From a virus (Duplodnaviria; Heunggongvirae; Uroviricota; Caudoviricetes), in IMG/VR virus record IMGVR_UViG_2850773344_000006: a stretch of 35,652 nt of DNA. The stretch is one strand, 5' to 3'. The notes beneath the pieces were generated by a model. It saw only the letters and a list, made by a program, of their open reading frames with translations. It ran no database searches and was not told the origin of the DNA. A program made the translations under genes and the position numbers. Shown here piece by piece: positions 4,776 through 15,993 of this stretch (position 1 is the first letter of the stretch; each line of letters opens with the position of its first letter).

Positions 4776-5399
4776 TTACTCAACGTCAAACGCCCGAATT
4801 GAAGCCAAATCATCCAGACCGCTCAGCTCCTCTTTCATTTCACGCTGACGGCGATAAATCTCATCGTTGCGATCGACCTGCGCCTGCACCATTGCTGCCG
4901 CCAGTTCTTCCAGTTCCGGCATCGACAGTTTCACCTGCTGATTATCGGCATCGCTCCACGCCATATGTGTTTGTGCTGTGACAGATTTTGCCAGCATGAC
5001 TACCGGGGACAGGCGGCCCAGTGAATCGGGACCAGCATTCCAGATACGACCGTTCCATTCAAACGTGAGCGGTTTCGCCTCCTGTTCTGCGCGCCATGCT
5101 TCAATTTCCTGACGTCTGGCCTCTCTGGCCGCTTCCAGCATTTCTGGTGTCACAGTGAATGGGGCTATCTCACCCCATTTGCCGCTTTGCAGTTCCTGCC
5201 AGATTTGCTGACCCGTCGGAGCGACATCATCAGCGGTGGCTGTGTAGGGGACTGCCTGGTCCCTGTCGTCAAAAAAAACGTCACAGTCTACTGCGCCACT
5301 TTCGGTATAACGGGGATTAATGATTTTTTTAATTTCCACGGTGCATTCCTCACGATGTGCGAATAAAAAGCCCAAGCATTGCGCCAGAGACATGAGCAT
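4776..5399 (-). CDS. Phage tail-fibre-associated protein (putative tail fibre assembly or chaperone), copy 1
   Basis: 207-aa ORF with a near-identical paralogue at 14156..14779; sits immediately downstream of side-tail-fibre-like sequence in copy 2. The extreme C-terminus diverges between copies. Family assignment is from memory and context. Confidence 0.5.
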   Translation of the reverse strand: MLMSLAQCLGFLFAHREECTVEIKKIINPRYTESGAVDCDVFFDDRDQAVPYTATADDVAPTGQQIWQELQSGKWGEIAPFTVTPEMLEAAREARRQEIEAWRAEQEAKPLTFEWNGRIWNAGPDSLGRLSPVVMLAKSVTAQTHMAWSDADNQQVKLSMPELEELAAAMVQAQVDRNDEIYRRQREMKEELSGLDDLASIRAFDVE

Positions 5400-5517
5400 C
5401 CGGCACCCCGGACAGGGCGCAATATGACCCCGGTAATGAATGCTCTGAACATCCCGTAATGAAAAATTGTGGGGATGCTATATACGTTCCGGTGGGAGTA
5501 CTGGGCACTGAAATCCC

Positions 5518-5625
5518 TGATATCGTGTTCTCTGGCGATCCGGGCAACAACAGCCCCAGGCTGTAACGCCTGCTTAGCCAGACGGACCTTAAATTCACGG
5601 CTATAGCTGGTTCGCCGTTCTTTTC
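5518..5625. mobile_element. 108-bp internal fragment of the IS66-family element, abutting that element's own terminal repeat
   Basis: 5518..5625 is identical to 7891..7998 (inside the IS66-family orfA). Both end in TTCTTTTC. Confidence 0.75.
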
Positions 5626-5657
5626 GTAAGCGCCCCGAGAAGTACGTAGCGTAAGGA

Positions 5658-7254
5658 TTATTTTACAGACGAGAAGTTCCAGGGCAGCAGTTCATGCACT
5701 TGGTTCGACGGCCAGTCATTGAGCTTCTCGATCACTTCGCGCAACCAGTCCTCCGGCTCCACTTCGTTCTGTTTGCAGGTGACCAGCAGACTGTAGATGA
5801 TCGCCGCACTTTCTCCTCCCTTGTCTGAGCCGAAAAAGAGATAATTTTTTCTTCCAACCGCCACCGATCGTAACGCGTTTTCACCGATGTTGTTGTCTAT
5901 TTCCACCCAGCCGTCACGACAGAACTCGTTCAGCGCATTCCAGTGATTCAGGATATAGTCGAACGCCTTCGCCATCTCCGCATGTTTCGACAGCGTTTTC
6001 CTCTGCAACTGTATCCAGTCGTACAACGACTGCATCAACTGGACGCTTCTGGCTTTTCTGACTGCAAGCCGTTCCTCTGCCGGACTGCCACGTATCTCCG
6101 CTTCTATGTCGTATAACTCTGCTATCCGTCTGAGCGCTTCCTGAGTCATTTCTGTCGGACGGCGCACATCCTCGTCATGGATTTTTCGGCGGGCGTGGGC
6201 CAGACACCCGGCTTCCTTCACCCGGCCCGTTTCGTACAGTACGTTATAACCTGCATAGGCATCAGCCTGCAGTACGCCCTGATACTTTGCCAGGTGGAGC
6301 TGCGGATGTTCTCCTTTGCGATCTGCCGAATACGCGAACCAGACGGCTGCCGGCAGGGATGAACCCGCATTACGATCATCCCTGACGTATACCCACAGAC
6401 GACCCGTTTTCGTCTTTCCGTTCCCCGGGGCCAGTACTTTCACCGGAGTGTCATCTGCGTGCACCTTTCCTGCCTCCAGAACATAGTCATTCAGCGCTAT
6501 ATACAGAGGACGGAGTTTGTCTGCCATTTCTGATACCCAGCGCACCATGGTATTACGGCTCAGCTCCACGCCCTGTCGCGCGTATATTTCTGACTGGCGA
6601 TATAAAGGGATATGTTCCATATATTTGCTGACCAGGATCCGTGCAAGTAACCCTGCACTGGCATAACCGCGTTCGATCGGTTTAGGAGGAAGTGGTGCCG
6701 ATGACATCACACCGGCTACAGGCCAGTTTGGGACGTATGGTTTCGATAACTTTAAAGGCGGTATTAATGATATCCAGTTGCTCTGAGATTGTTTCCCCCA
6801 TTTCTTTCAGAACACCTCCACAGGCCGGGCAACTGGTTTCAGCAGGCAGAAGGCGATGTGTCTCCCGGGGAAGTTCTGCCGGCAGCGGTTTTCGTGAAGA
6901 TTTTCGTCCCGGGAATTCAGGCTTACTGGCGATCGGGTTTTCTGACGGGGGACTGGTGTCAGGTGAATCTGTGACTGACGATGCATCTTCCAGAAGATTT
7001 CTGGCTGTGTTCAGCCGGTTTTCCAGTTCCGACAGTCGTTTTTCTGCCTGTCGGATCTGATTTTCAAGCTTATGACGCTTTTTCTCTGAACTCTGGCCGA
7101 ACAACATACGACGCAACCTGTCGAGTTGCGCTTTCAGCCGTTCAATTTCCTGCTCATAGCCCGCGACCTGACAGGCATACTGTCGAAGCCGACTCTGTTG
7201 CTTACGCAACATGGCTTTAAGCAGCTCAATATCATCGGGGAGTTCATTGTTCAT
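5658..7254 (-). pseudogene. IS66-family transposase (tnpC) split into two overlapping ORFs by a frameshift
   Basis: ORFs 6682..7254 (N-terminal part with CPACGG...CSRC zinc-finger motif) and 5658..6710 (C-terminal catalytic part) overlap by 29 nt in different frames. Confidence 0.7.
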
Positions 7255-13955: not shown

Positions 13956-14080
13956 CACAACATCCGAGGACAGCATCGTCCGCCAGCCTACAGAAGTCCG
14001 GAAAGCCATGGAAGGTCGTTGGGAGGAGGTACGAATTCTATCATGCAAAAAATACGTAAAATCGATAACGCCTAGAAATC

Positions 14081-14170
14081 ATTCAATACTCGCACTATCG
14101 AAAGTTTACCAGCCAACCGCGGCACGTTCCTGCATACGACGTGCCGCAGCTTCTGTTATTCCACGATAAA
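14081..14170. repeat. Roughly 90-bp conserved hairpin element, copy B
   Basis: 8-bp stem GCGGCACG/CGTGCCGC at 14119..14147; aligns with 2585..2672. Lies between the sitD stop and the tfa copy 2 stop. Confidence 0.6.
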
Positions 14171-14779
14171 ATTCCTAACCGAATTCAAATCCTTCAGACT
14201 ATTCAGCTCTTCCTTCAGCTCCCGCTGACGGCGATAAATCTCATCGTTGCGATCGACCTGCGCCTGCACCATTGCTGCCGCCAGTTCTTCCAGTTCCGGC
14301 ATCGACAGTTTCACCTGCTGATTATCGGCATCGCTCCACGCCATATGTGTTTGTGCTGTGACAGATTTTGCCAGCATGACTACCGGGGACAGGCGGCCCA
14401 GTGAGTCGGGACCAGCATTCCAGATACGACCGTTCCATTCAAACGTGAACAGCTTCGCCTCCTGTTCTGCGCGCCATGCTTCAATTTCCTGACGTCTGGC
14501 CTCTCTGGCCGCTTCCAGCATTTCTGGTGTCACAGTGAATGGGGCTATCTCACCCCATTTGCCACTTTGCAGTTCCTGCCAGATTCGCTGACCCGTCGGT
14601 GCGACATCATCAGCGGTGGCTGTGTAGGGGACTGCTTGGTCCCTGTCGTCAAAAAAAACGTCACAGTCTACTGCGCCACTTTCGGTATAACGGGGATTAA
14701 TGATTTTTTTAATTTCCACGGTGCATTCCTCACGATGTGCGAATAAAAAGCCCGGGCATTGCGCCAGAGACATGAGCAT
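14156..14779 (-). CDS. Phage tail-fibre-associated protein (putative tail fibre assembly or chaperone), copy 2
   Basis: 207-aa paralogue of 4776..5399; 14223..14897 is near-identical to 4843..5517. Confidence 0.5.
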   Translation of the reverse strand: MLMSLAQCPGFLFAHREECTVEIKKIINPRYTESGAVDCDVFFDDRDQAVPYTATADDVAPTGQRIWQELQSGKWGEIAPFTVTPEMLEAAREARRQEIEAWRAEQEAKLFTFEWNGRIWNAGPDSLGRLSPVVMLAKSVTAQTHMAWSDADNQQVKLSMPELEELAAAMVQAQVDRNDEIYRRQRELKEELNSLKDLNSVRNFIVE

Positions 14780-15993
14780 CCGGCACCCCGGACAGGGCGC
14801 AATATGACCCCGGTAATGAATGCTCTGAACATCCCGTAATGAAAAATTGTGGGGATGCTATATACGTTCCGGTGGGAGTACTGGGCACTGAAATCCCCAC
14901 CGGTCCCAGTCGTGAGCCTCTGTATGACTGCCCCCTGACAAGTCTGATGACTTTATCACCGTCAGCTTCTCCCTGGTACGCAGCAATAATCAGCCCGCCA
15001 ATGTCAGGGTCTCCCCATCTGTTGCGGACAGAGCTCGCCACGATTCTGTAAATAATATCTTCTGTGGTTATATTTATTTTCACCCAGTCAGTCTGGATAT
15101 GGGCCAGTAGCGGTAGCGGGTGTGATAAATGGGGCCGTTAATGCCGTAAAAAGTAAGGGATTTGGCTCTGTACCGCGGTTCTGTTGTCTCAGGGCGTGCA
15201 TCAGTCCACCGGATGCTGAGCACCCCTTCAAACCGTGTGTCGGGTATGATGATGCCGTAGGGGCCAGCAACGGAATATTCACCTGGCAGCGCATTCCTTA
15301 CCCAGGCCAGGAAATCACTCTTAGTGTCAAAACGGATAACATCTTCAGGCAGAAAAGCACACCCAAAGCCGAATGCGCCGGGTATCGCCAGACGGCCTTT
15401 TGTCCGGTCGTAAATGTCGCTCTGTGCTTCCATCGTGGCCGCACTTTTCAGCCCCAGATTATCCCGGGACTTCTGTTGTGCCTTTTCGCCTGCTGCTGCG
15501 ATTTCAGACAGATGGTTAGCCGTTTTCAGAGTGCCGGTCAGCGCAGCATCAATGTCATTTTTGGCCTGCTCTGCTGCGCGGGCATAACCTGCGGCTGCCG
15601 CCACATCCTGCGCCGTCTGCTGTGCGTTTCCGGCTGCGGCCCCGGCGCTCTGCTGCGCCTGCGCCACCATTTCCTCAAAGCGTTTGACGACATCCGGTTT
15701 CAGGTCGCCCTCATCAGGAGCAATCAGAAAGTCATTCAGCGTACCGGGCTTTGAGTCCTCATATACAGCAATGTCGCCAACGTTGTACTCGTTGTGCCAG
15801 TCCTGTTTCAGATACACACCATATTTCCAGTCCGCGCATGGAAACAGTATTCACCATCGTTTCCTGTCATCACATCAGCAACAGTGTGCATCACCACTTC
15901 CGGGGTGTTTACCCGGGATTTCAGAATAATATGGTATCCGGACATGGAGATACCTGCGCCATCAGTCAGCGCACCTGATATCACTACAGACAT
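14730..15993 (-). pseudogene. Lambda Stf-like side tail fibre gene, shortened and broken by at least two frame changes
   Basis: N-terminal ORF 15808..15993 (MSVVISGALTDGAGISMSGYHIILKSRVNTPEVV...) and ORF 15080..15817 (...VYEDSKPGTLNDFL...) resemble the remembered lambda Stf N-terminus; the C-terminal piece 14730..15083 is in a third frame. Confidence 0.6.

Follow-up and report, generated by a model that had tools for sequence, protein, structure and literature searches.

We found that the two 675-bp direct repeats bracketing sitABCD in a 35,652-nt stretch of Caudoviricetes DNA (IMG/VR record IMGVR_UViG_2850773344_000006; the whole stretch is called the window below) are the conserved end (the final ~0.7 kb) of the late, tail-fibre operon in two temperate phages that are close relatives, and not a dedicated excision device. 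The left repeat (copy A) is joined to the effector gene ipaH and the right one (copy B) to sitABCD, and each copy, together with its 3′ tail and its cargo, matches a different intact prophage of Escherichia coli or enteroinvasive E. coli (EIEC); this bears out the proposal of an initial annotation of the window, namely that a pair of related prophage tail modules, with ipaH in one and sit in the other, had been brought together. We consider it likely that the structure as a whole arose when two related, decayed prophages were joined by a chromosomal rearrangement and then reduced by deletions associated with insertion sequences (ISs). The window stems from the Shigella flexneri serotype-5 lineage; over 20.6 kb it is 100% identical to CP037923.1, and the same layout is displayed by CP000266.1, CM001474.1, UGYR01000001.1 and JANXIZ010000001.1; because it recurs in independent S. 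flexneri genomes, it is not an artefact of assembly. The coordinates of the features discussed are collected in Table 1.

A repeat search, a MAFFT alignment and an ungapped base-by-base comparison agree that the two copies are identical at 665 of 675 positions (98.5%), free of gaps and in direct orientation, a match far above chance. The ten mismatches lie at 5025, 5069, 5071, 5073, 5184, 5206, 5220, 5256, 5374 and 5375, and leave perfect blocks of up to 182, 142, 117 and 110 nt. Identity is only 67% across 4776-4842, where the gene continues, and falls to background level to the right of 5517. The initial annotation had placed near-identical, same-orientation repeats at exactly these coordinates and had called them tail-fibre-associated paralogues, which agrees with the genes found in them (see below); its inventory of the DNA between them (an IS66-family element, an IS911 fragment, IS1, an integrase fragment and the complete sitABCD) was likewise recovered item by item by repeat and profile searches and alignment. 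Its figure of 9.4 kb is right as the start-to-start period (9380 nt) but not as the DNA separating the copies, which amounts to 8705 bp (5518-14222). Had a single DUF4376 region been duplicated locally in tandem, or doubled as an artefact of assembly, the high identity and the direct orientation would follow, but this explanation is refuted by the different cargo modules to the left of the two copies, each with its own intact counterpart in E. coli or EIEC, and by the recurrence of the ten fixed differences and of the arrangement in independently sequenced complete genomes; we accord it practically no probability.

Each copy consists of the first 185 codons of a 207-aa DUF4376 open reading frame (ORF) and the last ~118 nt of the preceding, overlapping tail-fibre gene. 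The DUF4376 protein matches PHROG 1141 over its full length, and none of the NCBIfam models matched it. The left edge of the repeat (4842/4843) is the junction of a prophage backbone with its cargo, be it ipaH or sitABCD: the 67-nt 3′ tail of copy A (4776-4842) is identical to that of ipaH-linked EIEC copies, and the 67-nt tail of copy B to that of the sit-linked copy of EIEC CFSAN029787, so that the last 22 DUF4376 codons go with the cargo. As far as 4843/14223, the backbones agree at 98.5%; beyond, the sequence changes to the ipaH type or the sit type, and an equal switch is seen in four compared E. coli/EIEC loci. At the right edge of copy A (5517/5518), the tail-fibre gene abuts a 109-nt piece of ISSfl3 tnpA. 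The identical junction is present in Shigella loci without sit nearby (L007, L011-L013 and L037-L039) and in CP026799.1, and the truncation of the copy-A tail-fibre gene is therefore old. The 675-bp unit is thus not a natural one; its right end is an old ISSfl3-associated truncation and its length accidental. Upstream on the B side, the tail-fibre gene runs on to ~15994 and is followed by the Caudo_TAP gene and part of a second fibre gene. Relative to its E. coli/EIEC homologues, this tail-fibre gene has lost 4 nt (CCAG) at 15083/15084, which splits it into ORFs of 117 and 245 aa; strain 8401 has it as an uninterrupted ORF of 422 aa.

Copy A and ipaH are assigned, by comparison with EIEC, to a prophage of the yebY/pphA site. 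In EIEC RMDEC465, a ~53-kb prophage lies between yebY and pphA in the order yebY-int (358 aa)-xis...tail fibre-DUF4376-ipaH3-pphA; positions 1-489 of the window are 97% identical to the yebW-pphA region of this genome, and the left flank of the window, yebW-pphA::IS600-ipaH, displays the same pphA junction. The two halves of pphA abut in the compared locus L004 (at 7253-7256). The window ipaH holds the position of ipaH3/ipaHb in the EIEC prophages, 180 nt from the DUF4376 gene of copy A, and abuts pphA exactly as in the prophage integrated at yebY/pphA, i.e., as cargo beside the attachment (att) site. Copy A, its divergent 3′ tail, the 59-aa ORF and ipaH together match the cargo end of such prophages. 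An exact match to the IpaH protein occurs in three contigs, all of which have the arrangement of the window. The exact 59-aa protein is far more widespread (766 index blocks); an ipaH-type gene is its neighbor in 10 of the 10 places shown and a DUF4376 gene lies beside it in 8 of the 10. Indeed, ipaH, the 59-aa ORF, DUF4376, tail fibre and Caudo_TAP form a recurrent module found at several loci per Shigella genome, and the A/B pair belongs to a multi-copy, dispersed repeat family present at most chromosomal ipaH loci. As a separate observation, positions 2590-2680, upstream of ipaH, are ~80% identical to a ~85-nt stretch at 14078-14160, just past the 3′ end of copy B; given this match, the ipaH cassette with the 59-aa ORF (~2.1 kb) looks inserted, relative to the sit-type layout, between DUF4376 and the 2590-2680 segment. 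Within ipaH, 3226-3405 comprises a 60-nt unit and two more such units in tandem, with 82% and 62% identity to the first; they correspond to the leucine-rich repeats of the effector.

Copy B and sitABCD, for their part, are assigned to a Rac-type (IntR) prophage. In E. coli O121, a prophage at the Rac site has the order uspF-att-sitABCD-DUF4376-tail fibre...recE-gam-xisR-intR-att-ttcA, and EIEC CFSAN029787 has the same uspF-sitABCD-DUF4376-tail-fibre end. In the window, sitD lies 200 nt from copy B, which places the sit cargo just downstream of the tail-fibre and accessory genes, and an IntR-type tyrosine integrase is present, if only as its 3′ 640 nt. In UGYR01000001.1, the window sequence continues past its right end through an IS600 into pgrR (ycjZ)-ycjY-mpaA-ycjG; the distance of these genes from ttcA and the Rac att site in O121 is 18-20 kb, and the sit prophage there is oriented relative to them as it is here. 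Because the sequence runs via IS600 into the pgrR region in the native orientation, we place the B/sit prophage at its native Rac locus, with the int side deleted. Hybrid attL and attR flanks are absent: the sole att site in the window is an attP, IS600 joins the prophage to pgrR, and the ttcA side is deleted. The sit prophage is thus at the right locus but no longer excisable. Nor does the window hold a site-specifically excisable sit island, with intR truncated by IS1 and a single att core in 35.6 kb; the 534-aa recombinase encoded at 19636-21240 is of an unrelated kind, and no repeats matching it surround sit.

The att site itself is informative. The segment 9414-10156 matches the 3′ part of O121 intR, together with the att arm downstream of it, at 98.8% identity, and the sequence from 10114 onward matches the sit-side arm and sitABCD of O121 at 99.5%; these matches overlap in the 43-nt core region. 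Over the left 100 nt there is no difference from the int-side att arm of O121, and the right arm is identical to the sit-side att arm of both O121 and CFSAN029787. The core, AAGAAAGAACAATACAACCTGAACAA (10131-10156), which we take to be identical to that of Rac, occurs once in the whole window, 350 nt upstream of sitA. Since both arms are phage-derived, the site is POP′ (attP), and, since a prophage integrated via its own att site cannot retain attP beside intR, it points to a former tandem (double) IntR lysogen. Accordingly, we infer from the truncated intR and the unrecombined attP left of sit that the sit phage was once present in tandem. We also considered a tandem lysogeny of the ipaH phage at the Rac att site, and rejected it: there is no second Rac core between pphA and ipaH, and the EIEC ipaH prophage uses a 358-aa integrase at yebY.

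The DNA between copy A and the attP reads as a gutted phage genome, the relics of which are parted by ISSfl3, IS911 and IS1. With the ISs set aside, it holds first the tail-fibre 3′ end, then a 233-bp early-region segment and last the intR 3′ end, which follow the order and orientation of the phage map; the counterpart of the 233-bp relic adjoins ydfC in a related complete prophage, and its orientation fits a collinear map. The complete ISSfl3 (5627-8355) is 99.5% identical to the annotated element, with ends GTAAGCGCCCC...GGGGCGCTTAC and unlike 8-bp flanks (TTCTTTTC vs. TGTTGTTC), i.e., without a target-site duplication. In loci L007 and L011-L013, two nested or inverted ISSfl3 copies occupy the spot equivalent to window 5518-8363, which marks this stretch as an old pile-up of IS66 into IS66. 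The IS1 at 8648, which lies inside intR in other strains, is a breakpoint common to all three arrangement types seen. Direct repeats of other kinds also bracket sit, namely an IS1 pair (8648/17885; 99.7% identical) and IS600 copies (490/16938/22384), and these are recombination substrates at least as good as A and B. The two IS1 copies do not delimit a composite IS1-sit-IS1 transposon, as their flanks are unrelated and have no common target-site duplication. One could suppose that shuffling by IS1, IS911 and ISSfl3 alone joined the ipaH and sit modules and that the order of the relics is coincidental, a view in keeping with the three IS junctions without target-site duplications between A and intR, with the IS1 as breakpoint in every arrangement type, and with the known IS-driven rearrangement of Shigella genomes (PMC1550401). 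Yet the tail-fibre end, the early fragment and the intR 3′ end retain the order and orientation of a phage map, the other S. flexneri arrangement (see below) differs only to the left of the same IS1, by collinear early-left phage DNA, and the attP would be left unexplained; we hold this explanation to be quite improbable. Capture of a circular phage through IS2, with the copy at 31396-32729 and the one upstream of kilR in other S. flexneri genomes as the two ends of a cointegrate, was also rejected: the two have separate, perfect 5-bp target duplications (GCATC and GCTGC), which mark them as independent insertions.

Comparison with further S. flexneri genomes indicates how the interval was shortened. 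CP007037.1, CP182555.1, CP097828.1 and CP189683.1 share everything rightward from the IS1 at 8648, and to its left these four still have 172 bp of 5′ intR sequence together with xis, a gene for an AAA ATPase, gam, recE, ydaE, kilR and an incomplete Rha gene. The arrangement of the window is best read, from this comparison, as a further loss beside IS1. On the far side of yebW, the gene order is inverted. With the sit prophage at the native Rac site, the ipaH end deriving from the pphA locus and the gene order inverted past yebW, a rearrangement between the Rac and pphA loci is required.

We envisage the following history. A Rac-type sit phage would have formed a tandem IntR lysogen at the Rac locus, and the tail-fibre gene of copy A would already have been cut by ISSfl3 before the sampled Shigella lineages diverged. 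A chromosomal rearrangement would then have joined the ipaH end to the second Rac-type copy, in the int-proximal part of the latter, by exchange via near-identical phage backbones or IS copies inside them, leaving A and B in direct orientation; sit-type and ipaH-type phages do share early genes that are 99.6-99.7% identical. Deletions associated with ISSfl3, IS911 and IS1 would have stripped nearly everything between A and B, and, in the serotype-5 lineage, one more deletion beside IS1 would have produced the 8.7-kb interval. We entertain more tentatively, as possible but somewhat doubtful, a narrower two-step account, in which tandem sit lysogeny was followed by recombination through backbone homology with the yebY/pphA ipaH prophage, giving a large inversion, and in which the DUF4376 repeats are still an active hotspot of conversion and deletion that modulates sit carriage. 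If it is true, the homology of decayed prophages, and not IS elements alone, shaped the Shigella chromosome.

A different route to the same contiguity would be a Campbell-type capture, in which an excised circular sit phage with its attP intact recombined by homology with a resident yebY/pphA ipaH prophage to give pphA-ipaH-A...intR-attP-sit-B...int358-yebY, with the repeats as the footprint of a single crossover. This would explain the intR-attP-sit contiguity, the retained pphA-ipaH junction and the collinear relics from A to attP, and the two phage backbones are nearly identical in places. It predicts, however, the 358-aa integrase beside yebY at the far end, which instead runs via IS600 into pgrR-ycjY-mpaA-ycjG; a distance of only 18-20 kb to the native Rac att site, combined with native orientation, is unlikely by chance (~1% of the chromosome), and no crossover signature is visible within the repeat. 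We therefore regard capture as unlikely. A crossover point inside the repeat was looked for by comparing both copies with sit-type and ipaH-type references and was set aside as a candidate, with too few informative sites and no clear switch.

Returning to the joining of two decayed prophages by rearrangement, the repeats also bear on the later fate of sit. In CP182555.1, the sit-linked copy has a B-type 3′ tail and, at eight consecutive variable sites (5025-5256), the haplotype A-G-G-T-G-T-A-C, which is otherwise seen only in pphA-linked copies and matches the pphA-linked copy of UAUS01000001.1 at those sites; other sit-linked copies are also mosaic. Alleles thus appear to have been shuffled between sit-linked and ipaH-linked copies in the pattern expected from gene conversion among paralogues. 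The A/B pair has the properties of a RecA substrate (direct orientation, 675 nt, i.e., well above the minimal processing segment, and 98.5% identity), and a RecA-type A × B deletion or circularisation of sit is plausible: such a crossover would remove 5518-14222 and one copy of the repeat, and with them sitABCD, ISSfl3 and IS1, as a non-replicating circle. The recombination proposed in the initial annotation is therefore mechanistically sound, and the copies do exchange sequence, but the sampled genomes hold no A × B junction. The comparison with strains lacking sit that it had suggested yielded one such relative, CP026799.1, the only one found, in which ycjM-IS1 is joined to the 233-bp segment, ISSfl3, copy A and ipaH. 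The partner IS1 lies in ycjM (CP026799.1 locus, 5964-6733; CP026810.1 locus, 6443-7211, where it has an 8-bp duplication). As both IS1 copies are in direct orientation, CP026799.1 has evidently lost the whole sit prophage by a ~50-kb deletion between the IS1 in ycjM and that in intR, and not by A × B. The A × B pathway would thus compete with IS1 × IS1 and IS600 × IS600 recombination, of which the IS1 route is the one observed.

Several points weigh against this history. The joining crossover cannot be located; IS debris fills 5518-8647, and ISs, not the backbone, may have mediated the joining. The distance between the pphA and Rac sites, ~0.5 Mb, is that of the E. coli K-12 map. The evidence for the tandem-lysogen step consists of the attP and the intR fragment, and it is from collinearity that copy A is placed upstream in the kilR-retaining S. 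flexneri arrangement as well. Exchange with incoming phages or with further DUF4376 copies could account for part of the allele mosaic. Finally, the ipaH-DUF4376-full tail fibre junction that A × B recombination would leave at pphA is in none of ~20 complete genomes, a small sample, and no circular product was observed.

Much of this agrees with what has been described for the locus. PMC7545054, citing Fisher et al. 2009, describes the S. flexneri pathogenicity island (PAI) sit as occupying several chromosomal sites and as unstable via homologous and not site-specific recombination; on that description it is the same locus, with sitABCD among phage genes and IS elements and with a site differing between strains. 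The 8401 genome paper has no discussion of this locus. In enteroaggregative E. coli (EAEC) 042, sitABCD lies at the tail end of a prophage (PMC2808357), and effector genes as a general rule follow tail-fibre genes, next to att (PMC3530523). Lambdoid cargo ("moron" or exchangeable effector) loci, such as the EAEC 042 prophage 042p3 (sitABCD) and the effector prophages of enterohaemorrhagic E. coli (EHEC) Sakai, likewise have cargo downstream of tail fibres beside att, with one backbone and varied cargo. Unlike such single loci, the window has two such ends, from phages with different integrases, 8.7 kb apart and in direct orientation, and both phages are defective. The likeness to Rac of E. coli K-12 (IntR, att at ttcA) extends to intR (98.8%), the pgrR...ttcA neighbourhood and, in other S. 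flexneri, kilR, ydaE and recE; in contrast to K-12 Rac, the sit relic has sitABCD and DUF4376 instead of pinR at its tail end and retains attP rather than a bacterial-phage junction by uspF, with the integrase and the int-side att site gone. Tandem polylysogens, e.g., lambda dilysogens, likewise have an int gene, POP′ and then the cargo end of the next copy, but here the second integrase is down to 640 nt and the rest is replaced by IS elements and the cargo end of another prophage. Shigella also has chromosomal ipaH islands with a recurrent module; copy A is a member of this module, which here abuts the sit prophage. The structure is thus an ordinary product of mosaic prophages and IS decay in a published locus and is largely already described; the attP relic and the history of tandem lysogeny and rearrangement read from it are a tidy addition and not a new kind of system.

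As sitABCD (iron/manganese uptake) and the chromosomal ipaH effectors are virulence and fitness genes of Shigella, the stability of their carriage affects strain comparison, the stability of vaccine strains and typing schemes that rely on sit or ipaH. In the M90T/8401 lineage, two related dead prophages make up the patchwork of the sit region, where the loss of sit needs no site-specific system and depends on homologous recombination among nested IS1, IS600 and tail-module repeats. This is useful for interpreting sit-negative isolates or misassemblies and calls for caution where the context of sit or ipaH is taken from draft genomes. Many S. flexneri draft assemblies have only partial DUF4376 proteins (194-200 aa, up to 81 contigs), which suggests that short-read contigs break inside the repeat.

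Table 1. Features of the window around the two repeat copies, in order of position
Feature	Position	Strand	Basis and remarks
yebW (DUF1482), chromosomal flank of the pphA locus	1..276	+	Pfam DUF1482
IS600 inserted in pphA	490..1753	-	repeat search
pphA, N-terminal 150 codons	1750-2202	-	NCBIfam protein-serine/threonine phosphatase, profile positions 1-149 of 218
ipaH, 551 aa, cargo of the left prophage remnant	2941..4596	+	NCBIfam IpaH_Shig, 563.7 bits (cut-off 550)
59-aa ORF between ipaH and DUF4376	4597..4776	-	translation; no Pfam match
DUF4376 tail-fibre-family gene, copy A, 207 aa, intact	4776..5399	-	Pfam DUF4376, E=1.5e-15; PHROG 1141 "tail fiber protein", E=2.4e-88
Repeat copy A	4843..5517		665/675 identical to 14223-14897
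Tail-fibre gene, 3′ end, ~118 nt, severed at 5517	5400..5517	-	collinear with "prophage tail fiber N-terminal domain" genes of four compared E. coli/EIEC loci
ISSfl3 tnpA internal fragment, 109 nt	5518..5626		duplicate of 7891-7999; repeat search and direct sequence reading
Complete ISSfl3 (IS66 family)	5627..8355	-	tnpA, tnpB, frameshifted tnpC; NCBIfam IS66 TnpA, TnpB, transposase
IS911 terminal fragment, 59 bp	8356..8414		same sequence as the end of the complete IS911 (32948-34197)
Phage early-region relic, 233 bp	8415..8647		88% identical to EIEC ipaH3 prophage segment (L033, 6281-6540)
IS1	8648..9415		flanks AGGTTGCAA and TGACCCGTT; no target-site duplication here
intR 3′ part, 640 nt, 5′ part missing	9416..10055	+	98.8% identical to annotated O121 intR; tyrosine-recombinase matches
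attP	10114..10156		core AAGAAAGAACAATACAACCTGAACAA; int-side phage arm left, sit-side phage arm right
sitABCD, four intact ORFs	10506..13955	+	99.5% identical to annotated sitABCD of E. coli O121
DUF4376 tail-fibre-family gene, copy B, 207 aa, intact	14156..14779	-	Pfam
Repeat copy B	14223..14897		aligned base by base to copy A
Tail-fibre gene of the sit prophage	14730..15994	-	Pfam phage_tail_N, PHROG 2636; broken by a 4-nt deletion at 15083/15084
Tail-fibre assembly protein (Caudo_TAP)	16017..16388	-	Pfam PF02413
Partial IS600, then IS1	16938-17884, 17885-18652		both direct repeats of copies left of sit

To the right of these features, the gene of the 534-aa recombinase (DUF6538/tyrosine recombinase) lies on the minus strand. 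Upstream of it (19176-19623), a unit of ~120-150 nt varies in copy number among S. flexneri genomes, as indicated by repeated BLAST matches at two loci. The segment with the recombinase (17885-22383) is missing in CP182555.1, where one IS600 joins the flanks.

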